Of a stretch of 64,000 bases of DNA, positions 6,530 to 51,936 are shown piece by piece. How positions within the stretch are numbered: position 1 is the first letter of the stretch; each line of letters starts with the position of its first letter. Both the position numbers and the translations under genes were made by a program. Source of the stretch: Candidatus Eiseniibacteriota bacterium (GTDB lineage Bacteria; Eisenbacteria; RBG-16-71-46; CAZAMP01); assembly GCA_965224245.1 (NCBI GenBank), contig OZ245046.1:5792001-5856000 (forward strand), written 5' to 3'. Below the pieces are notes generated by a model, which was not told the DNA's origin, did no database searches, and saw nothing but the letters and a program-made list of their open reading frames with translations.

Positions 6530-9439
6530 CTACTTGAGGAGCGTCACGCGCTCCCGGAACTCACCGCTCTCGGTGGAGAGCCGGACGAAGTACACACCGC
6601 TGGAGAGCGCCGTACCGTCTCCCGCCGTGCCTTCCCACGAGAACGCGTAGCGTCCGGCCGCCTGCCGGCCCTGGACGAGCGTGGCCACGAGACGGCCGTT
6701 CGCGGCGAAGACCTCGAGCGACACCTCCGACGGGGTCGACAGGGCGTACTCGATCGACGTGTGCGGGTTGAACGGGTTGGGGCTCACCGCGGTGAGGCCG
6801 GTCGGCGGGCCCAGGATCGTCGTGGCGTCGTCGACACCGACGATCTCGCCATCGAACGTCTCGATCAGCACGTCGTCGATGGCGCTCTCGGTGAGCGAGT
6901 TGTTGGGATCGTCACACACGTGGAAGCGCAGGCGCATGTCGCTGGTGAGCGGCAGGATCTGGCACACGTTGATCCGGGCCTCGGTCCACGCGCCCACCGT
7001 GGAGGTCAGGCGCTCGAGCGGCATCCACGTGGCACCGCCGTCGTTGGAGATGTCGGCCTCGAAGACGTCGTCGTCGGGAACCGAGCCGCGGTTGTACCAC
7101 CAGCGCCAGTACGAGACGCGGGCGTCGGCGGCCCCGGACATGTCGAAGACGGGGGACGTGAGCGTGGTGCACCCGTCGTCCACGTCGTTGTCGCCGGCTC
7201 CGCTTCCGAAGAGGCCGGTCACGAAGCAGTCGGTGCCGAGCGGCGTGTGATCGTCCTCGGGCTGAACCTGATCCCCGCCGGAAGTCGTGCCCTGCGGATC
7301 ACCCCGCTCCCAGACACCGGTGGTGGCGGTGTCGCCGGGATCACCGAGGATCCAGCCGGTGTCCGACTCGACGTCGTCGGTGAACACCGTGACGGCGCTG
7401 GACACCGTGATGCGACGGGTGACCGCGGGGGCGCCCACCGGGTCCGTGGCGACGTTCCCGTTCGCGTCGGACGCGCTGATGTAGAAGTCGATCTCGGTCC
7501 CGAGCGGCTGCCCCGGGATCGCGAACGAGTGAACGTCACCCTCGACCGATGCGCCGGCGGCCAGGAACTCGCCACCGTCGACGCTGTACAGCAGCTCGGT
7601 CTCGACGAACACGAGATCATCGGTGATCGTGGCCGAGACCCAGTACGGGCCCAGCACGCCGTCGGTCGCGCACGGCTGTGCGACGTCGGTGATCGTGGGT
7701 GGCGTCGAGTCGAGCGGATTCGGGTCGAGCGCGAAGTCCTGGACGGTCGCGGCCGATTCGACGACGGCGACGTCGGTGGCCAGCCCGTCCAGGAAGGCGG
7801 GGTGGGTGACGCGGACCGTGTACGTTCCGGCGGTCAGGTAGCTCGCGTAGTGACCGTCGGCGTCGGTGTCGATCGTGCGGGCCGCCTCGACGATCTCGAC
7901 CACCGCGCCGGGTACGGGGGTGCCGGTATCGGCGTGCGTGACCGTTCCCTCTATCGAGCCGATGCCTTCCAGCGCCTGGCTGACCGCCTCGTACGCGTCG
8001 ACGAAGCCGTTCCCGTAGCCGTTGTCCTCTCCGGCGGGCCCGAAGTCGATCGCCGTGTCGTGGATGAGCTGCTTGACCGCGTCGACGGTCAGGTCCGGGT
8101 TGGCCGAGCGAATCAGCGCCGCGAGGCCGGTCACGTGGGGGCCCGACATCGACGTGCCGCTGAGGAACCCGTAGCCGCCCGGGACGCTGGACCAGACGTC
8201 GACGCCGGGCGCGCACACCTCGGGCTTGATCGTCGATCCGTCGCACCCCGACGGTCCACGGCTGGAGAAGCTGGCGATCGGGTACGGGTAGCCGAAGTTG
8301 GTCGCGTCGACGGCGCCGATCGAGAAGCTCGTCAGCGGCGTCGCGATGCGATCGGCGGGGGAGCCGATGGTCTCGGAGCCGGGACCCTCGTTCCCGGCCG
8401 ACCAGATGGAGATGACGCCGGCCGCGCTGGCGTTGTCGATGGCCGCGTTCCATCGACCGTCGCAGTCGCTGTACCCCGAGAAGCTCTCGTTCACCCGCCA
8501 GGAGTTCTGGACGACGTCCGGAACGTCGTCGCTCGTGCCGGGGTCGCCGTCGGGATCGGCGAACCACTGATACGAGTCGATGATGTCGTTGTCGAGCTCG
8601 GACCCGCCGCCCTGGCCGATGGCGTTGGAGGCGATCCACTGGGCACCGTAGGCCACGCCGATCGAGTCCCCCGCGGCGGAGAGGCCGGTGATCGTCCCCA
8701 TCACGTGAGAGCCGTGCGAGCCCGAGTCCCACGGAAAGGTCGTGGAGCCGCTGCCGAGCACGTTGAGCCACGACTCGGCCGCGCTCGCCCCGTTCGCGCC
8801 GCGCCAGCGATCGGCGAGCGCCGGGTGCGTGCCGTCCACACCGGTATCGCAGTTCGCGACGATGACGCCCTCGCCGGTGATGCCGAGCTCGTTCCACACG
8901 CGCGGCACGTTCATCGCGCGGAGGCCCGGCGTGGAGCCGCTACCACCGCGGAGACCGGCGCCGTCCTCGCCCGAGGGCGTGAAGCCGCCGACCGGCTCGA
9001 TCAGGCTGACCGTGAAGTTCGGATCGACGAACGAGACGTCGTCGCGGTCGGCGATCCGGCGAATGGCATCGGTGGTGCCCTTCACGACGATCGCGCTCAC
9101 GATCCAGTAACGGGTGTAGCCTTCGATGGCGCCGGAGATCGCCATCAGGTCCAGCTCGGCCGCGAGGGGCTCCTGCGCGGTCGCCGCGGACTGGAGCGCG
9201 CCGACGACCGTCTGGTGACGTTCGGCCCGTTTCGCGCTCGAAAGGGTCAGGGATCGATCGATCGCCGCGATGTCGGCCTGGTCGGCCATGTAGACGATGA
9301 CGGACGTCATCTCGGTCGCGGACTTCGCCGCCAGAGCGTCCTCCAGCGCGGGATGCAGCTGACCGGCGAACGCCGTGGACGCACTCAGCGCCAGCGTTGC
9401 GGTGATCGTCGAAAGAACCGGGACGCACCTGGGCTTCAC
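6530..9439 (-). CDS. S8 subtilisin-family serine protease with carboxypeptidase-regulatory-like domain and FlgD-Ig/T9SS-like C-terminus
   Basis: Triad motifs NCDTGVD, HGSHVMG and GTSMSGPHV; SAGNEG; FSSRGP; signal peptide; PNPFNP...SGVYFVRL...VTLLK; GAGGAGG before GTG 9439. Confidence 0.92.
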   Translation of the reverse strand: MKPRCVPVLSTITATLALSASTAFAGQLHPALEDALAAKSATEMTSVIVYMADQADIAAIDRSLTLSSAKRAERHQTVVGALQSAATAQEPLAAELDLMAISGAIEGYTRYWIVSAIVVKGTTDAIRRIADRDDVSFVDPNFTVSLIEPVGGFTPSGEDGAGLRGGSGSTPGLRAMNVPRVWNELGITGEGVIVANCDTGVDGTHPALADRWRGANGASAAESWLNVLGSGSTTFPWDSGSHGSHVMGTITGLSAAGDSIGVAYGAQWIASNAIGQGGGSELDNDIIDSYQWFADPDGDPGTSDDVPDVVQNSWRVNESFSGYSDCDGRWNAAIDNASAAGVISIWSAGNEGPGSETIGSPADRIATPLTSFSIGAVDATNFGYPYPIASFSSRGPSGCDGSTIKPEVCAPGVDVWSSVPGGYGFLSGTSMSGPHVTGLAALIRSANPDLTVDAVKQLIHDTAIDFGPAGEDNGYGNGFVDAYEAVSQALEGIGSIEGTVTHADTGTPVPGAVVEIVEAARTIDTDADGHYASYLTAGTYTVRVTHPAFLDGLATDVAVVESAATVQDFALDPNPLDSTPPTITDVAQPCATDGVLGPYWVSATITDDLVFVETELLYSVDGGEFLAAGASVEGDVHSFAIPGQPLGTEIDFYISASDANGNVATDPVGAPAVTRRITVSSAVTVFTDDVESDTGWILGDPGDTATTGVWERGDPQGTTSGGDQVQPEDDHTPLGTDCFVTGLFGSGAGDNDVDDGCTTLTSPVFDMSGAADARVSYWRWWYNRGSVPDDDVFEADISNDGGATWMPLERLTSTVGAWTEARINVCQILPLTSDMRLRFHVCDDPNNSLTESAIDDVLIETFDGEIVGVDDATTILGPPTGLTAVSPNPFNPHTSIEYALSTPSEVSLEVFAANGRLVATLVQGRQAAGRYAFSWEGTAGDGTALSSGVYFVRLSTESGEFRERVTLLK

Positions 9440-44393: not shown

Positions 44394-44567
44394 GGGTCGG
44401 CTCCGCCGATCTAGCGTTGTTGGACGCGGGCGCCGGATGATCGCGGCGGCGCCGCAGGCGAGCGATGGCTGCGATGGGCAAGACTAATACGGCGGCTGGA
44501 CCCCCGCAACGACCGGTCGCGGTCGACGCGGGGCTGCGGCGGCGGAGACGATGGAGAATCGGGAGCG

Positions 44568-45854
44568 ATGACACACAGACGGATCGCACGCGCGGTGCTG
44601 GCGGCGACGATCCTCCTGGCCCTCGGCGCCGCACCGGCGGTGTCGGGATCACGGGAGGATCTGGCGGCCGCGTGGGCGCGCCTGGAGGCGGAGACACGCC
44701 AACGTCCCCGGGCCGAGGCGAGCGAGATCACCCGCGCCTTCCTGGATGGCATCACCGACGCGGACGTCCTCGACGCGTGCGCCGCGGATCCCGGCCACGA
44801 CGCCGCCGGCGCGAGCGCCGCGACGGAGCCCGCGCCGGCGTTTCGCCGCCTCCTGATCGCGTACACGCGTCATCGTCCCCCCGATGCGGCCACGATCGTC
44901 GCGCGCCTCGGCGATCCCTCGCTCGCCCCCGATTGCCACGACGCCTATCTGCGCGCGGCCCAGCGGCAGATCGACGCCTTCACGGACGCCGAGGCCGACG
45001 CGATCGCGCGCTCTCTCCTGACGCTCTCCGATGCGCGCCCCGGCTCCAGCACGGACCTGGAGCGCAGCGCGGTGGCGTTCGGACACAGCGATGCGGTGCT
45101 CGCGCGCCTCAGCACCCATCTCACCTCGACGCGCGACGCCGACCGGCGACGCGGCGCGGAGCTGGCGCTCGAGTCGCGGGACGACCGCGTCGGCCCCCTC
45201 CTGGTCCGTCTGCTCGAGAAGATCGTGCACGATCCCATCCCGTACGCCGAGAGCCTCGACGCGGTCGCGGTGGCCGCGGCCGAGCAGTCGGGTGGGGCCG
45301 CCCTTCCGCTCCTTGCTCAGCTCATCGCGAAGACCTCCGACTGGCGGATCCAGCGCGCCGGCATCGTCGCGCTCGGGCGCACCGGCGAGCCGCGCGCCTA
45401 CCGCGTCCTGGCGCGCCTCTACCGCGAGGCACCCGCGATGGCGCGATCGTGGCCGTCCCGCGATCCGGAAGCGGACGGGGCAGATGCCGACGTTGGAGCC
45501 GGCGCCGACAGTGGAGCCAGTGCCGACGTTGGAGGGAGCGCCGACGGTGGAACCGGCGCCGGCGTCACGGCTCACGACGTGTCGCACGCGACCGGTTCGG
45601 TCCCCAGCGCACTGCCGGCGGAGCTCTACCGCACCGCGCGGCGGCTCGAGCCGGCGGGGCTCGCCGCGCTCCGGCACGGACTCGTGGCCGAGGCCCGGGA
45701 CGTCGTGGAGGTGCTCGATCGGATGAGCCGGGAAGGGCCCTGCGTGCGTCCGGAGTCCGTGATCGAGGCGTTGAAGGACTACCTGACGCGCGACGCCGAC
45801 GCCGACACCGAACGCATCCGGGCGATCGTGGAGCGAATCGGCGCCACGCGCTGA
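44568..45854 (+). CDS. Exported HEAT-repeat-like hypothetical protein
   Basis: Signal peptide, helical repeats (WRIQRAGIVALGRTGEPRA), low-complexity insert. Confidence 0.6.
   Translation: MTHRRIARAVLAATILLALGAAPAVSGSREDLAAAWARLEAETRQRPRAEASEITRAFLDGITDADVLDACAADPGHDAAGASAATEPAPAFRRLLIAYTRHRPPDAATIVARLGDPSLAPDCHDAYLRAAQRQIDAFTDAEADAIARSLLTLSDARPGSSTDLERSAVAFGHSDAVLARLSTHLTSTRDADRRRGAELALESRDDRVGPLLVRLLEKIVHDPIPYAESLDAVAVAAAEQSGGAALPLLAQLIAKTSDWRIQRAGIVALGRTGEPRAYRVLARLYREAPAMARSWPSRDPEADGADADVGAGADSGASADVGGSADGGTGAGVTAHDVSHATGSVPSALPAELYRTARRLEPAGLAALRHGLVAEARDVVEVLDRMSREGPCVRPESVIEALKDYLTRDADADTERIRAIVERIGATR
45486..45557 (+). repeat. Degenerate 18-bp tandem repeat x4 in the coding sequence
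   Basis: GCCGACGTTGGAGCCGGC / GCCGACAGTGGAGCCAGT / GCCGACGTTGGAGGGAGC / GCCGACGGTGGAACCGGC. Confidence 0.8.
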
Positions 45855-45873
45855 GCCCGCGGCGAGGAAGCGG

Positions 45874-48771
45874 CTAGCGCCGCGAGCCCGGCCTCCGCGC
45901 CGAGCGTGCCCCGGGCTTTCGGGTGACGGCGCGTCGTGCGGGCGCGTGCGCGTGCCCGGGTCGTGCTTCGGCCGGGCGACCCCACCGCTTCAGATGAGCG
46001 GCCAGGTGTCGTCCGGTCACCGAGCTCGCGTTCGCGGCGATCTCGTCGGAGGTTCCGGTCGCGACCACGCGACCGCCACCGGCGCCCCCCTCGGGACCCA
46101 GATCGATGACGTGGTCCGCGCGCGCCACGACGTCCAGGTTGTGCTCCACGACGACGACGGTGTGTCCCCGATCCAGCAGCCGCTCGAAGGCGCGCAGGAG
46201 ATTGCCGATGTCGCCCACGTGCAGCCCCGTCGTGGGCTCGTCGAGAATGAAGAGGTTCGTGCCGCGCGTCGTCCTGGCCAGGTGGCTCGCGATCTTCAGC
46301 CGCTGCGCCTCGCCGCCCGACAGCGTGGTCGCCGGCTGCCCGAGCCGGAGGTACCCGAGGCCGACCTCCGCGAGGTGCCACAGCGGCCGCGAGATCGCCG
46401 GCGTGTCGGCGAAGAACGAGATCGCATCGGTGACGGTCATCTGGAGAATCTCGTGGACGTTCTTGCCGCGGTACCGTGCCTCGAGAATCCGGGCCTGATA
46501 GCGGCGGCCGCCGCAGTCGTCGCACGTCACGAACAGATCGGCGAGGAACTGGAGCTCGATCCGGATCGAGCCGGCCCCCTCGCACGTCTCGCAGCGCCCG
46601 CCCGCCACGTTGAACGAGAAGTCGCCCGGCGAGAGTCCGAGCCTCGACGCGTCCCGCGTTCCCGACAGGAGCTTCCGGATGCCGTCGAACGCCTTCACGT
46701 ACGTGACCGGGTTCGATCGGGGCGTGCGGCCGATCGGTGATTGATCCACGAGCAGCATGTCGTCGATTCTCGCATGTCCCGACAGGCGCTTCAGCGGCGC
46801 CGGGGAGGCGCCGCCCGGATCGCGCTCGGCGCGGTAGTTCCGGTACAGCGTCTCCTCGACGAGCGTGCTCTTGCCCGATCCCGAGACGCCGGTCACGCAG
46901 ACGAGTCCTCCCAGCGGAACGTCCACGTCCACGCCGTCGAGGTTGTGACCGCTCGCCCCGCGGATGCCGATCACGGGTGCGCCGGTCAGGTCGCGCCGCG
47001 TCATGGGCGGCAGCGTCTGGCGGCCACTCAGGTACGCCGCGGTGGAGCCGGGAGCGTCGGTCTCCAGCGCGGCCGGGTCGCCCTCGTAGACGATCCGTCC
47101 GCCGTGCTCGCCGGCGCCCGGTCCCAGATCGATCACGTGATCGGCGGCGGCGATGATGTCGCGGTCGTGCTCGACGACGACCACCGTGTTGCCGCCGTCG
47201 CGCAGCTCGGTGAGGATGCCGAGGAGCCGATCGTTGTCGCGGGCGTGAAGGCCGACCGACGGCTCGTCGAGCACGTAGAGCGTGTCGACCAGACCCGATC
47301 CCAGCGCCCCGGCCAGGAGGATGCGCTGATACTCGCCGCCCGACAGGCTGCGGCTGGATCGGTCGAGCGTGAGGTAGTCGAGCCCGGCCCGCTGCATGAC
47401 ATCCAGACGCCGCACGATCTCGGTCACCAGCGGCGCCGCGGTCTCTCCCGCGCGGCCGTCCAGCGGGAGCGCCTTCCAGAACGCGAGCCCATCGGTGACC
47501 GACATCCGACACACGTCGGCGATCGACCGGCCGAGGACCTCGAACGCGAGCGCCTCGGGTCGGAGCCGCGTGCCCCCGCACGCGTCGCAGGTGACGTAGC
47601 GGCGATGCCGGCTCAGGAACACCCGCACGTGGAGCTTGTAGATCTTGGCCTCGAGCGCCTTGAAGAATCCGCGCACGCCGGGGAAGTCCGGGGTGCCGTC
47701 GAAGATCGCGCGCCGATCGGTCTCCGGGAGGTCTTGCCAGGGAACGTCCGTCGGAATGCCGGAATCGGAGGCGAACGCCATCAGACGGCGCCGCCACTTC
47801 TGTCGCGCCGCGCTCTGCCAGGGCGCGACGGCGCCGCGGGCCAGGGATCGTGAGGGATCGGGGACGATGCGATCGGGGTCCAGGTCGATGATGTCGCCGA
47901 AGCCCCGGCATCTCGGACACGCGCCGGCCGGGCTGTTGAACGAGAACGCGAGCGGGCCCGGATCCGTGTACGCGCGGTCACATTCCGCGCAGTGAAACCC
48001 ACGCGAGAGTCGAACCGGCCGCGGGCCGTCGAGGAACACGGCCGCGCGGTCACCGCCCTCGGAGAAGGCGGCGTCGAGCGCCTCGGCCAGGCGCTGGCGG
48101 TTCGACGGCGCCAGCCGGAGCCGATCGGACACCACGAACGTCGGCGGCGAGTCGTCCGGGCCGACGGTGGCCACCGCGTCGCGCACGACGGGCTCGTGGA
48201 GATCGTCGATACCGGTGCCGTCGGTCGTGACGCGATAGAATCCCCGGCGCACCAGCGCGTCGAGCGCGCTCTCGCTGCGATCGATCACCGGAAACACGAC
48301 GGACGCCCGCTCGCCGGCGTGGGCATTCAGGAGGCGGTCCACGTTGGAGACGGTCGTGTCCCGCGTGACGACGTTCCCGCATCCCAGGCACCGGAGCACG
48401 GAGGCGCGAGCGTAGAGCATGCGCAGGTAGTCGAGGATCTCGGTCACGGTCCCCACCGTCGATCGGCTCGTCTTCGCCGGCGGCTTGCGCTCCACCGCGA
48501 TCGCGGGCGGGATCCCGCCGACGGTATCGACGTCGGGCCGGTCCATCCGCTCCAGGAACTGACGCGTGTACGCCGAGAGCGACTCCACGTACCGCCGTTG
48601 TCCCTCGGCGTAGAGCGTGTCGAAGGCCAGGCTCGACTTGCCCGATCCGGAGGGGCCGGTCACGACGACGAGCTTCCCGCGCGGGATGTCGACGTCGAGG
48701 TTCTGCAGGTTGTGCGTGCGCACGCCTCGTAACGAGATCACGTTCGAGGCCGGCGGAGCGTTCGGCGTCAT
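45874..48771 (-). CDS. uvrA: Excinuclease ABC subunit A
   Basis: HNLQN, GPSGSGKSSLAFDTLYAEGQRRY, FSFNSPAGAC, LSGGE (twice), GVSGSGKS and LDEPTTGLH. Confidence 0.95.
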   Translation of the reverse strand: MTPNAPPASNVISLRGVRTHNLQNLDVDIPRGKLVVVTGPSGSGKSSLAFDTLYAEGQRRYVESLSAYTRQFLERMDRPDVDTVGGIPPAIAVERKPPAKTSRSTVGTVTEILDYLRMLYARASVLRCLGCGNVVTRDTTVSNVDRLLNAHAGERASVVFPVIDRSESALDALVRRGFYRVTTDGTGIDDLHEPVVRDAVATVGPDDSPPTFVVSDRLRLAPSNRQRLAEALDAAFSEGGDRAAVFLDGPRPVRLSRGFHCAECDRAYTDPGPLAFSFNSPAGACPRCRGFGDIIDLDPDRIVPDPSRSLARGAVAPWQSAARQKWRRRLMAFASDSGIPTDVPWQDLPETDRRAIFDGTPDFPGVRGFFKALEAKIYKLHVRVFLSRHRRYVTCDACGGTRLRPEALAFEVLGRSIADVCRMSVTDGLAFWKALPLDGRAGETAAPLVTEIVRRLDVMQRAGLDYLTLDRSSRSLSGGEYQRILLAGALGSGLVDTLYVLDEPSVGLHARDNDRLLGILTELRDGGNTVVVVEHDRDIIAAADHVIDLGPGAGEHGGRIVYEGDPAALETDAPGSTAAYLSGRQTLPPMTRRDLTGAPVIGIRGASGHNLDGVDVDVPLGGLVCVTGVSGSGKSTLVEETLYRNYRAERDPGGASPAPLKRLSGHARIDDMLLVDQSPIGRTPRSNPVTYVKAFDGIRKLLSGTRDASRLGLSPGDFSFNVAGGRCETCEGAGSIRIELQFLADLFVTCDDCGGRRYQARILEARYRGKNVHEILQMTVTDAISFFADTPAISRPLWHLAEVGLGYLRLGQPATTLSGGEAQRLKIASHLARTTRGTNLFILDEPTTGLHVGDIGNLLRAFERLLDRGHTVVVVEHNLDVVARADHVIDLGPEGGAGGGRVVATGTSDEIAANASSVTGRHLAAHLKRWGRPAEARPGHAHAPARRAVTRKPGARSARRPGSRR

Positions 48772-49107
48772 GTGTCGTCCTGGCGGGGAGAGAACGGTGA
48801 CCACGAGCGGCCGATTGTCCTGCGTCGCACCATCCGGCGCAACGTCGCGGCGCCCGGCCGCGTCCCGCCACGCGCGGGCCGGCGGGCGGCACGAGGCTCG
48901 GGCGGATACCCACGCACCGGTCGCCGCCGGGTACGAAGTACCCACACCAACATGCTGCAGGAGAACGGTTTGTGCGAGAACTGGCTACTATGGGCACCCC
49001 GGTCCCGGATCCGGCCTCCGATCCGGGGTTCCCGATCCCGCGGCACCGGGCTCTCCAAGCGTGTGCGGTCGAGGAGCTTGGGCGGATCGAGGCGCTCCTC
49101 GGTCCTT

Positions 49108-49123
49108 TGGCACACTGCGTGCA
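49108..49123 (+). promoter_or_regulatory. Sigma-54 (-24/-12) promoter candidate
   Basis: TGGCAC-ACTGC-GTGCA against consensus TGGCAC-N5-TTGCA/T; the best-spaced match among the TGGCAC sites I checked on both strands. Confidence 0.6.
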
Positions 49124-49130
49124 ATACGAC

Positions 49131-49385
49131 AGGGCAGCGTGAGGCGCCGGCGGGATCTGGAAGAACCGCGACCTGTTTCCCAACCCCGGCAGTCTAGCAG
49201 CTCCTTCTCTTGGCAGCGGTCGGAGCTGTTCGTCGCGGTTCTTCCAGATCCTGCTGGCGACCTCGCCAGAGCCCTCGTTGCTGTTGTCTTGCAGAGTCAG
49301 GACCGACGGCCGGTGCCTCCGCTCTTCTTCAGGCGTTGGGGTACTAGCCTCCCGACGCCTGGGGACCGCGGCCGTGGGCTTTTTT
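49131..49385 (+). ncRNA. Unassigned structured non-coding RNA candidate
   Basis: 28-bp uninterrupted helix (49145-49172 with 49232-49259) plus flanking helices; second 15-bp helix (49326-49340 with 49351-49365); terminal U6. Non-Watson-Crick pairs in these helices are G-U on the plus strand. Confidence 0.65.
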
Positions 49386-49488
49386 CGTGCCCCCGAGGCG
49401 CCCGTCATCCCGGTCGCGTAAGATGCCGCCGGGCCGGACCCGCCGGCCGCATCCCACGCGAGATCCACGACCGAGACGGGCACCCCTC

Positions 49489-51936
49489 ATGCCGCCACCG
49501 ATTCGTTCCGACCGCGATCCGGTTCCGACGAGCACCTCGGCACGCGCCGAGATCGGGCTCGCCATCGTGGCGTCGAGCGTTCTCACGCTCGCGATGGTCG
49601 GTGCGCTCCTCTCGCTGGGGGTCTCGGCGCTGTCACTGAACGCGTCCTCCTCGGCGCCGCTGCCCCATGGACCGACCACGGTGCTCCGCGTCACCATCGC
49701 AATGGCGCTCGGCTACGCGGGCGTCTTCGCGCCGGTCGGGCTCATCGTGGGCGTCGTCGTCGCTCTCGTGCGTGGCCACGCGATCGCGAGGCGGCCGGGA
49801 CCGCGGACCCTCGCGCGGGCGGCGCTCGCGTTCGTCGGGCTGGAGGCGCTCGTCGTGCTGAGCGCGCCGTGGCTGGCCGACCTGCTCGACGGCGAGCGGC
49901 GGGTCGTGGCGGCCGTGGCGGCCGGCACCGCGCTGGCCGTGCTGCTGGCGGTGATCGTCGTCCGGCTTCCCCGTGAGGGACGTCACCCCGCGTGGGACCG
50001 CATCCGCATGGCCGTCCTGTTCGCGGTGGCGGTGCCGGTGGGCGTCGCGGTCGTCGTGAGGTCGACGTCCGAGCCACGCCCGGCCGCGGCGACCGAGCCG
50101 TTTCCACCGCTCACGCGCGCGTCGTCCTCCGGCATCGCGCTCCTGGGAGTCGACGGCGCGGACTGGATCACGCTCGATCGGCTGATCGCGGCCGGTGTGA
50201 TGCCGAACCTGGCCCGTGCGCGAGAGGACGGCGCCGCCGGCGATCTGTACGTCCGGTTTCCGTTCACGCCCCCGTCGTGGACGACGATCCTGTCGGGCGT
50301 GGACGATCACACGCACGGGATCGTCGCGTTCGCCGGGCAGGTGGACGCGTGGGGAGACCTCGTTCGCCGCCCGCGCATTCACGACATCACGGCGCGAGTC
50401 CTGAGCGAACGTCGGCAGCTCCCTCCGCCGCCGGCCATCATCGGGTGGCTGTCGGCTCCGGCGGACCTCGCCGCCGTCGCCTACGCCCGCGCGATCCATC
50501 CGTTCGATCGGCCGCTGGTGCTGCTGGACGCCACGCACGTCGCGTTCAAGCGGCTCTGGCAAATCGCCGAGGATGCCGGACTCGCGACCGGGACGTTCGG
50601 GGTCGATCTCAGCTGGCCCGCCGAGCAGGTGCGCGGCTTTCTCGTCTCCGATCGGTTCGTGCGGGGTGAGCGGGCGGACGCGGTCTACCCCGACCGGCTG
50701 GTCATGCCCCTCGACGCCCTCGCGATCGGCTCGCCCGACGCGATGGCCGATCCGGGCGACACGCCCTCGATCGATCCCGGCGGCCGAGATGCGGACGTCT
50801 CCGGCTCGCGCGAGGCCGAGACGGCGTTCTTCGTGCGAACCGCGCGGCGTCAGCACCGCGAGTGGCTCGAGGAGCTCCGGATGGCGCGCCGTCTCTTCGA
50901 GACCGAGTGCGACGGGCTCGACCTCGTCACGCTGAAGTTCCGCCAGCCCGACACGATGAAGCACTACCTCCTGCCGTTCCTGAGACCCGACGCGTTCCCA
51001 TGGCTCGACGTCTCACCCGACGCGAGCGCCGCCGTGCTCGAGGTGCTTCACGACGCCTACTACGAGCTGGATCTCCTGATCGGAGAGATCCGCGACGCCG
51101 GGTGGACGCTGTGCATCGTCTCGGACCACGGTTTCTATCCGAACCGGGCGGAGTCCCCGAGACAGGACAGCGTCTCGCTCGACGCAGACACGCTGCTCGA
51201 TCGACTCGGATGGCTCGTTCGGGGTGAAGACGGGGACATCGACTGGACGCGAACGCGCGCGTACGACCCGGGCACCCCGACGCCGGCGGAGACGAGCGGC
51301 CTCCGGCTCAACCTCCGGGGAAGGGAGCCGAACGGCGTGGTGCCCGTCGCCGAGCGCGCGTCCGCGCTCGAGGCGCTCGTGCGCGACCTGGGGTCCGTCC
51401 GGTACGCCGACTCGGGCGAGCCCGTGTTCACGACGATCGAGACCGATGCCGCGGGCTTCGACGTGGTGGTGCGCCATCCGCTCCGGCGGCCGCTTCGCGA
51501 CGTGCTGGAGCCACTCACGCGTCGCGTGGTCGTGGCCGGCCGCTCCGCGCCGATGAGGTCGGTGTTCGCGTTGCATCCGACCTACGGGGGTCACCGGGGT
51601 GGCACCGACGTCGCGGGGTACGGCCCGGCCGTCCTGCTCCTGTGCGGTCCCGACGTGCGCCGCGGCGTGACGCTGGAGAGCGCGGAGGACCTGGACGTGA
51701 CGCCCACGATCCTGCGGCTCCTCGGCGTTCCGCTGTCGGCGGAGCTCCAGGGACGGGTGCTGGACGAGGCGCTCGCGCCGGCGTTCCTCGAGGCTCACCC
51801 GATCACGACGGTTCCGGGCTACGGCCCGCACCGGTTCGACCCCGAGCTCCTGGCGAGGGCACGCGCGGGCGGCGGCAGCGAGGCCACACGCAAGGAGATG
51901 GTGGATCGGATCCGGGCCCTCGGCTACCTGAACTGA
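49489..51936 (+). CDS. Membrane-anchored AlkP-superfamily phosphodiesterase/phosphohydrolase
   Basis: Several N-terminal TM helices; LLGVDGADW, TPPSWTTILSG, VSDHGF, DVTPTIL, GRVL; C-terminal RIRALGYL. Confidence 0.82.
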   Translation: MPPPIRSDRDPVPTSTSARAEIGLAIVASSVLTLAMVGALLSLGVSALSLNASSSAPLPHGPTTVLRVTIAMALGYAGVFAPVGLIVGVVVALVRGHAIARRPGPRTLARAALAFVGLEALVVLSAPWLADLLDGERRVVAAVAAGTALAVLLAVIVVRLPREGRHPAWDRIRMAVLFAVAVPVGVAVVVRSTSEPRPAAATEPFPPLTRASSSGIALLGVDGADWITLDRLIAAGVMPNLARAREDGAAGDLYVRFPFTPPSWTTILSGVDDHTHGIVAFAGQVDAWGDLVRRPRIHDITARVLSERRQLPPPPAIIGWLSAPADLAAVAYARAIHPFDRPLVLLDATHVAFKRLWQIAEDAGLATGTFGVDLSWPAEQVRGFLVSDRFVRGERADAVYPDRLVMPLDALAIGSPDAMADPGDTPSIDPGGRDADVSGSREAETAFFVRTARRQHREWLEELRMARRLFETECDGLDLVTLKFRQPDTMKHYLLPFLRPDAFPWLDVSPDASAAVLEVLHDAYYELDLLIGEIRDAGWTLCIVSDHGFYPNRAESPRQDSVSLDADTLLDRLGWLVRGEDGDIDWTRTRAYDPGTPTPAETSGLRLNLRGREPNGVVPVAERASALEALVRDLGSVRYADSGEPVFTTIETDAAGFDVVVRHPLRRPLRDVLEPLTRRVVVAGRSAPMRSVFALHPTYGGHRGGTDVAGYGPAVLLLCGPDVRRGVTLESAEDLDVTPTILRLLGVPLSAELQGRVLDEALAPAFLEAHPITTVPGYGPHRFDPELLARARAGGGSEATRKEMVDRIRALGYLN

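Follow-up and report, generated by a model that had tools for sequence, protein, structure and literature searches.

A predicted sigma-54-dependent structured RNA of Eisenbacteria with covarying helices and an invariant hairpin

In a genome of the uncultured phylum Eisenbacteria, a gap of about 700 bp separates uvrA from a phosphodiesterase-like gene (PF01663), which raises the question of whether the gap holds a gene of its own and of what kind this gene would be. The gap is part of a stretch of 64,000 nucleotides (nt) of contig OZ245046.1 (Candidatus Eiseniibacteriota bacterium), which will be referred to as the window and whose numbering is used for all positions given without a contig or locus name. 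A sequence-only reading of the window had proposed a sigma-54-dependent, structured noncoding RNA of an uncharacterised family on the plus strand. This reading is supported by the sequence comparisons described below. The gap contains a predicted RNA unit, its promoter and an upstream palindrome, and we consider it very probable that a real RNA gene lies at 49134-49385 on the plus strand. Next to nothing is known of how Eisenbacteria regulate their genes, and among the papers listed by a limited literature search, judged by title and the opening of the abstract, none dealt with RNAs of this phylum. Our comparison comprised 206 genomes of the phylum, all of a single class and including one unpublished genome (G053) without the RNA motif. 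Families within the phylum are designated by f numbers; f1 consists of two genomes, the one containing the window (G000) and one relative (G001).

Fold and conservation of the RNA

The plus strand of the element folds at -150.2 kcal/mol compared to -112.7 +/- 5 kcal/mol for 200 shuffled controls (z = -7.5), none of which was as good. Checked letter by letter, the helices named in the sequence-only reading are present: AGGGC/GCCCT pairs at five of five positions, GTGAGG/CCTCGC at six of six with one U-G, the long helix formed by 49145-49172 and 49232-49259 at 28 of 28 with two G-U, and the apical AGCAGCTCC/GGAGCTGTT at nine of nine with one G-U. In the downstream domain, ACGGCCG and CGGCCGT were found at 49306-49312 and 49369-49375, and all 15 pairs of the helix 49327-49341/49350-49364 form, though with four G-U pairs instead of three; the named helices contain at least eight wobbles, not the six that had been counted. 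The family is indeed uncharacterised. No match to Rfam 15 was obtained in the element when positions 48000-50500 were searched at E <= 10, 6S RNA included, and ten homologous loci gave nothing relevant. A canonical 6S RNA (66.2 bits) and the signal recognition particle (SRP) RNA (RF00169; C1:465376-465474, 72.6 bits) are encoded elsewhere in the genome, and the RNA locus has no SRP match.

A DNA-level palindrome or a mobile repeat (miniature inverted-repeat transposable element or repetitive extragenic palindrome) would also fit some of these features, as the rod formed by the long helix is an inverted repeat and the minus strand likewise folds better than its shuffles (-131.7 kcal/mol, z = -5.0). 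The element is, however, single copy: BLASTN within the genome returned only the locus and its own inverted repeat, and the covariance model gave one match. Furthermore, the covariance-model score is strongly strand-asymmetric (133.8 bits for the plus and 54.1 bits for the minus strand), the many G-U pairs, two of them invariant, would be A-C on the other strand, and the helices covary across families without being DNA palindromes of each other. Because of copy number and strand asymmetry we regard this explanation as refuted, with practically no probability remaining.

The family was delimited in several searches. BLASTN against 40 relatives yielded one clear homologue, in G001, which is 75% identical and carries TGGCAC-N5-CTGCG in the same register. 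A first covariance model (R1), built from two sequences only, produced weak full-length matches in f11 (26 bits), which on inspection showed the same promoter and the same 20-nt block together with a rod of different sequence. These matches are real members and opened the way to a wider family. Among the 206 genomes, 24 contain exact matches to the invariant block, CUGUU-N1-3-CCAACCCCGGCAG, 25 in total; a reversed control pattern had no match at up to two mismatches in one search and three at up to one mismatch in another. Five one-mismatch occurrences of the block outside the six families listed below lack the promoter, lie in coding-like sequence and were rejected as chance. One f15 genome (G058) contains two copies on different contigs (L074 and L099), each with palindrome and promoter, one of the promoters being weaker (GGTAC-N5-TTGCC). 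A second model (R2), built from 16 sequences of f13 and f15, scored all 25 copies with 33.8 to 115.7 bits, including those of families outside the seed, and none of the chance loci. When this model, which represents the 5' domain, was applied to 151 genomes, the RNA was detected in all 28 genomes of f1, f4, f6, f11, f13 and f15, and the 123 other genomes gave only three weak matches (E 0.03-0.1); 49 genomes of f9 and six of f17 were searched by motif only. Judged from these searches, the RNA occurs throughout six related families of the phylum and is restricted to them.

Near-identical copies of the RNA were present on contigs from two metagenome runs; of two other runs, one contained nothing and the other only a 37-nt piece from outside the RNA. 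The first contig is identical over 49139-49241; its promoter is retained with a single change in the spacer, and the 12-nt leader between promoter and rod has diverged. The second carries 12 substitutions and one insertion. Among its listed changes on predicted pairs, three maintain pairing (G-C to G-U, C-G to U-G, U-G to C-G) and one breaks a U-G pair; the remaining listed changes fall on positions unpaired in the fold or in the pairing of the sequence-only reading. In a metagenome variant, C49226 is replaced by U, which turns a G-C pair of the P3 hairpin into G-U. A pattern combining the loops of the P2 and P3 hairpins found three loci in public genome contigs, of which the G001 contig alone is real, the second half of the pattern being f1-specific; its 25 loci in metagenome contigs included none that was homologous by BLASTN or folding, and this f1-specific pattern is blind to the other families.

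In single-sequence minimum-energy folds, the architecture is identical in all 25 copies and consists of a P1 rod of roughly 20-30 pairs and a three-way junction carrying the hairpins P2 and P3. In 21 of the 25 copies, 0-9 nt separate the predicted start from the beginning of the rod. P2 is a hairpin of 20-21 nt with a 5-bp stem and a C-rich loop of 10-11 nt, and both its five pairs (C-G, U-A, G-C, U-G, U-G) and its loop are unchanged in 25 of 25 copies. The other helices strongly covary. In the model alignment of the 25 copies, 90.9% of 831 cells form standard pairs, compared to 72.5% with shuffled partners (0 of 500 shuffles reached the observed value) and 31-45% with partners slid by one to three columns. 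Double changes were found at 27 of 35 pairs, including all 22 rod pairs, and amount to 161 cells versus 53 expected. In the base helix of P3, four of six pairs show double changes with 99.3% of cells paired. The rod sequence is completely replaced between families, yet its pairing is kept.

Two points weigh against taking these counts at face value. They stem from an alignment fitted to the model and are biased towards that structure, and the structure recovered with RNAalifold from plain MAFFT alignments of 25 and 16 sequences was limited to P2, the P3 base and the upper part of the rod, the lower rod being visible only in the model-based alignment. The bias is countered by the rods of different families, which have unrelated sequences and nevertheless form pairs when each copy is folded on its own.

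RNase III typically acts on helices of about 20 bp or longer, and the 28 uninterrupted pairs in the window had suggested a precursor or double-stranded RNA substrate whose long helix is cut by RNase III, with the products or the cleavage itself as output. The uninterrupted duplex is not conserved, however. The rod of G001 already contains a 2x2 internal loop within the long helix, and bulges and internal loops give shorter runs in f4, f6, f11, f13 and f15. According to the predicted folds, the perfect duplex of 28 bp is specific to f1, and the conserved feature is the whole rod with its junction instead of a long perfect duplex. We therefore did not retain the RNase III idea, which we judge to be very unlikely.

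The fold of the 3' domain is the least certain part of the RNA. A motif CCUGGGG...GCGGC recurs near the 3' end in f1, f6, f13 and f15, and the remainder of the domain varies among families. Predicted lengths from the start to a hairpin followed by a U-run are approximately 230-400 nt where an end was found, and 252 nt in both f1 genomes. The run of six T at 49380-49385 described in the sequence-only reading is present, but a simple terminator scan called no canonical intrinsic terminator at this end of the RNA. The end of the transcript is also called into question by one metagenome variant with UUUCUC at the position of the U-run, although GGGC...GCCC is kept, and more generally by the fact that both RNA ends are deduced from the sequence. 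The terminal stretch of G001 reads GGGGG-U6CU-GCCCCC. In f11, an extra block about 250 nt after the rod is conserved in five genomes (L046 at ~1745-1850, L047, L006, L066 and L092): GGCUCCCUG...GCCUCCCUUGCG...GAAGCCACGG. It has no Rfam match and may represent either a 3' domain particular to this family or an element of its own.

Promoter, upstream palindrome and candidate activator

The -24/-12 element from which the sigma-54 reading started, TGGCAC-N5-GTGCA, is present at the proposed position and belongs to the conserved unit. In 23 of 25 copies, the invariant motif is preceded at a distance of 50-64 nt by the pattern GG[CT]A[CT]-N5-N[TC]GC, compared to none of five chance motif loci. The promoter pattern has just 112 matches on both strands of the 6.9-Mb genome; the sole other match to the strict pattern within the window is TGGCAT-N5-GTGCC at 9064-9079 on the plus strand. 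The genome contains rpoN (PF04552, 220.3 bits) and 42 matches to the activator family PF00158, 35 of them with at least 145 bits, none of the PF00158 matches being located within the 64-kb window.

An inverted repeat at 49004-49027 had been suggested as the site of an enhancer-binding protein. The repeat is present, but none of the other copies has a counterpart and it lies outside the conserved unit, which argues against its being the activator site; between -150 and -40 at this locus, the position weight matrix (PWM) described here gave no match of 8 bits or more. Conserved in its place is a 19-bp palindrome further upstream with the consensus GTGGNWMC-N3-GKWNCCAC. Of the 24 copies examined, 22 have it at -182 to -205 relative to the -24 GG and one more has it at -227, and the f4 copy lacks it. 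A circularity is to be set against these numbers, as the sites reported here also served to train the PWM; independent support comes from matches elsewhere. In the genome of the window, 53 matches reached 13 bits or more, and four of them, this locus included, have a sigma-54 promoter 163-181 nt away; approximately 0.3 chance promoters would be expected in all flanks searched, based on the 112 genome-wide matches. The other three palindrome-promoter modules precede a TonB-like gene, a gene for a secreted protein, and a folded unit free of open reading frames (ORFs), which we call locus A.

Two copies depart from this picture: the f4 copy has neither promoter pattern nor palindrome, and a copy from f15 (G033) fits the promoter pattern only loosely. 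With a -24/-12 promoter at the right distance, sigma-54 and enhancer-binding proteins encoded in the genome and a conserved candidate site upstream, sequence evidence nevertheless makes it highly likely that transcription of the RNA depends on sigma-54 and on the palindrome.

Which protein would bind the palindrome? The two best palindromes of the genome precede an operon (L102 2570-6320; G000:C1 ~3028069-3031820) encoding a small secreted protein, a sigma-54 activator of 1032 amino acids (aa) with TPR, AAA+ (Sigma54_activat) and HTH_8 domains, a TonB_C protein and a PTS_EIIA_2 (EIIA(Ntr)-like) protein. The activator gene itself occupies ~3028069-3031167 on the minus strand of C1, and the operon is also preceded by a degenerate -24/-12 element. 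At nine of ten orthologous activator loci from f1, f7 and f11, a palindrome of 16-22 bits is located 163-197 nt before a sigma-54-like promoter facing the operon, the promoter pattern used for these ten loci being slightly looser. The arrangement suggests positive autoregulation of the activator operon. On the other side, the TPR activator family, defined by its N-terminal 700 aa, is present in 191 of the 206 genomes, including families without the RNA, and a different activator could be the palindrome binder. Because of the near-universal spread of the TPR activator, its distribution neither supports nor refutes a link to the RNA. On balance we lean slightly towards the TPR activator as the cognate regulator of the RNA.

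A regulon with a likely autoregulated activator, together with the rod shape and a 5' end placed in the rod, might also argue for an RNA that binds RNA polymerase in the manner of 6S, or that serves as a decoy for sigma-54 or its activator and feeds back on transcription. The locus does not match the 6S model (RF00013), the canonical 6S RNA is encoded elsewhere, and the predicted folds have no large central bubble. Moreover, sequences of the conserved RNA read by eye showed no GG/GC spacing like that of a -24/-12 element. We consider such a polymerase- or activator-binding role highly improbable.

Locus A (L103 466-935; G000:C1 ~3013965-3014435, outside the window) is a second candidate sigma-54-dependent noncoding RNA. 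Its palindrome is found ~170-178 nt before a TGGCA[CT]-N5-TTGC promoter, followed by ~440 nt without a credible ORF that fold at -203.7 kcal/mol and end in a hairpin and U-run (terminator), convergent with a recO-like gene. No Rfam match was obtained for locus A. A homologue in G001 (L127) has the same palindrome-promoter spacing and a 27-nt identical core. Pairing of the P2 loop with the locus A RNA was considered and rejected, since the duplex energy of -22.1 kcal/mol equals the background of shuffled sequences (-21.5 +/- 2.2 kcal/mol).

The palindrome was also considered as an SOS box of uvrA. This was dismissed, as the region upstream of lexA (L100; G000:C1 ~3555906-3556000) instead contains TGCAC-ATTC-GTGCA, a candidate SOS box, and the palindrome accompanies the RNA at loci without uvrA. 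The lexA-upstream box resembles the SOS box type reported for Fibrobacter. In the window, the 155 nt preceding uvrA showed no box of the TGCAC-N4-GTGCA type.

Gene neighbourhood and features of the locus

In the window, uvrA is encoded on the minus strand and starts at ATG 48772, as read from the sequence and in agreement with the position of the Pfam P-loop, approximately 155 nt from the palindrome. A longer ORF starting at GTG 48945 would run across the palindrome and was rejected, the P-loop position and the N-terminal sequence favouring ATG 48772. Downstream, the phosphodiesterase-like gene (plus strand, ~49490-51936) follows about 100 nt after the RNA end. The coordinates of the features are summarized in Table 1.

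Table 1. Features of the predicted RNA gene and its upstream region (window positions)
Feature	Position	Strand	Description
Candidate activator site, 19-bp palindrome	48927-48945		GGGTAC-GAA-GTACCC core; 182 nt before -24 GG; PWM 16.2 bits
Inverted repeat of the sequence-only reading	49004-49027		CCCGGATC-N8-GATCCGGG; outside conserved unit
Sigma-54-type promoter	49108-49123	+	TGGCAC-N5-GTGCA; GG 49109-49110, GC 49121-49122; predicted start ~49133-49135
Predicted RNA	49134-49385	+	~252 nt from inferred start to U-run; fold z -7.5; ends inferred from sequence
P1 rod, 5' strand	49131-49172	+	Includes 28-bp uninterrupted helix 49145-49172; 22 of 22 aligned rod pairs with double changes
P2 hairpin	49173-49192	+	CUGUU, loop UCCCAACCCC, GGCAG; invariant block of the family
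P3 hairpin	49196-49230	+	AGCAGCUCC/GGAGCUGUU, loop containing UUGGCAGCGG; base helix covaries
P1 rod, 3' strand	49232-49275	+	Based on fold, pairing check and covariation
3' domain (fold least certain)	49276-49375	+	Small hairpin; 7-bp helix 49306-49312/49369-49375 around 15-bp helix 49327-49364; CCUGGGG-N4-GCGGCC near end
Terminal stretch	49376-49392	+	GGGC, U-rich, GCCC: terminating U-run, or small terminal hairpin with U-rich loop

With a downstream gene in the same direction and a hairpin and U-run about 100 nt ahead of it, the RNA might be a cis-acting 5' leader or attenuator of the phosphodiesterase-like gene, or, given that uvrA is adjacent and divergent in f1 and f4, a regulator of uvrA. 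The neighbours change from family to family, however. In G001 the RNA is again divergent from uvrA, but the next gene downstream is convergent; in f13 and f15, speA is convergent to the RNA; in f11, the RNA is flanked by a gene for HU on the upstream side and by a kinase or Wzy gene on the downstream side. In f6, f11, f13 and f15, uvrA is not a neighbour. Downstream genes thus either vary among families or are convergent, and because of this variable synteny the cis-acting explanation is largely refuted and exceedingly unlikely. Since the flanking genes differ among families while RNA, promoter and palindrome stay together, the RNA is a standalone gene.

Some observations on genes at these loci are added here. 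In f13, f15 and f6, a gene in the same direction as the RNA is found ~300-400 nt upstream of it, before the palindrome (e.g., L078 1931-3019, minus strand); at one of these loci it matches the FadL/Toluene_X outer-membrane family (E 3.6e-8), and the others gave no Pfam match at 1e-5. In the window, an ORF of 470 aa (44465-45877, plus strand) abuts the 3' end of uvrA. It belongs to no Pfam family, has very low protein-atlas recognition and no usable match, and may not be a real gene.

Proposed mode of action and relation to known RNAs

Taken together, the data are compatible with the following mechanism. Sigma-54 RNA polymerase would transcribe the RNA when an enhancer-binding protein on the palindrome is active. 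The likeliest activator would be the TPR-AAA+-HTH protein of ~1030 aa, presumably autoregulated through the same palindrome-promoter module, and the RNA would represent one output of its regulon beside the TonB-like and secreted proteins and the locus A RNA. The P1 rod might shield the 5' end and display the junction, and the RNA may act in trans via P2 and the junction, most likely by binding, and in this way titrating or guiding, a conserved protein; long antisense pairing seems disfavoured as mode of action. Taken as a complete chain ending in a trans-acting RNA with P2 as effector, whether its partner is a protein or an RNA, the case seems to us evenly balanced.

Recognition of the folded P2 by a protein is favoured because the stem, with its two wobbles, is as invariant as the loop, because the neighbouring helices covary, and because no long antisense partner was found: the invariant block has no complement of more than 15 contiguous pairs elsewhere in the genome of the window, G-U allowed. 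GlmY acts as a protein decoy, and CrcZ sequesters a protein via repeated A-rich motifs. We tentatively propose a comparable decoy or adaptor mode with P2 as the protein-binding site, a possibility to be held with some reserve.

A classical base-pairing small RNA (sRNA) would also fit part of the data, which counts against the proposal. The C-rich P2 loop UCCCAACCCC would then be the seed for G-rich stretches in mRNAs, for instance the envelope and TonB-dependent uptake mRNAs of the regulon, and would alter their translation or stability. Several known sRNAs (6C, RoxS/RsaE) use C-rich loops as seeds; the P2 loop never varies and is exposed in all predicted folds, and units with the same enhancer module encode TonB-like and secreted proteins. 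A seed, however, constrains the loop alone, whereas both strands of the P2 stem, including the two U-G pairs, are invariant next to covarying neighbours. The best antisense matches in the genome do not exceed 15 contiguous pairs and are no better than expected at 70% G+C, and a ribosome-binding site of the GGAGG type lacks complementarity to the loop. We consider a role in short-seed pairing rather unlikely.

With protein binding by P2 as the preferred reading, the RNA and the locus A RNA, which looks unrelated to it, might form the RNA arm of a phylum-wide regulon of the autoregulated TPR-type activator, P2 docking a conserved protein and the signal being linked to the envelope or TonB; as a whole, this larger picture is doubtful. 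If true, an RNA and a protein of Eisenbacteria would make up a new regulatory pair comparable to GlmY-RapZ or CrcZ-Hfq. Already at the present stage, sequence analysis has yielded a complete candidate circuit for a phylum without cultured members, comprising the palindrome with its sigma-54 promoter, the structured RNA and its invariant hairpin, and an activator candidate that is apparently autoregulated. The short list of sigma-54-dependent RNAs gains a well-supported, strongly covarying family of 25 copies that is absent from Rfam, and the covariance model can be used for annotating these genomes and for finding the RNA in metatranscriptomes.

Among known RNAs, 6S RNA (RF00013) resembles the RNA described here in being rod-like, ~200 nt long and paired at its 5' end with a downstream strand. 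The RNA differs from it by the lack of a central bubble, a 3' end outside the rod, a sigma-54-type promoter and the absence of a model match. Qrr of Vibrio, which depends on LuxO and sigma-54, and Pxr of Myxococcus are sRNAs of ~100 nt, of the Hfq type or with three stem-loops, and are often encoded beside the activator gene. They have in common with our RNA that they are trans-acting and sigma-54-dependent, both predicted here, and contain a conserved single-stranded or loop region; the RNA of Eisenbacteria is longer, has no PF00158 activator match in the 64-kb window and no Rfam match.

In Enterobacteriaceae, GlmY/GlmZ have sigma-54 promoters activated by GlrR at three upstream sites, with IHF (PMC3045617). 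The RNA of Eisenbacteria is similar in being a standalone sRNA gene with a -24/-12 promoter and a conserved, here candidate, activator site far upstream, and in that two RNAs, here the RNA and locus A, are possibly under the same activator. It differs from GlmY/GlmZ in its single palindrome at about -182 to -205 versus the three GlrR sites, in its likely activator, which is of the TPR type versus a response regulator, in its length of ~230-400 nt, its rod and three-way junction and its lack of an Rfam match, and in coming from a different phylum. CrcZ/CrcY of Pseudomonas depend on CbrB and sigma-54 (PMC6296734, PMC8871633). CrcZ/CrcY (about 400 nt) and our RNA share sigma-54 dependence, here predicted, a length of several hundred nt and the position as one output of a global activator's regulon. 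Protein titration, a proposal in our case, is the likely mode in common, with a single invariant C-rich hairpin instead of a repeated motif, and no Rfam match, as the differences from CrcZ. Having neither sequence nor fold in common with GlmY/GlmZ, CrcZ, Qrr or Pxr and belonging to no Rfam family, the RNA is a new family of a known kind, the sigma-54-dependent sRNAs.

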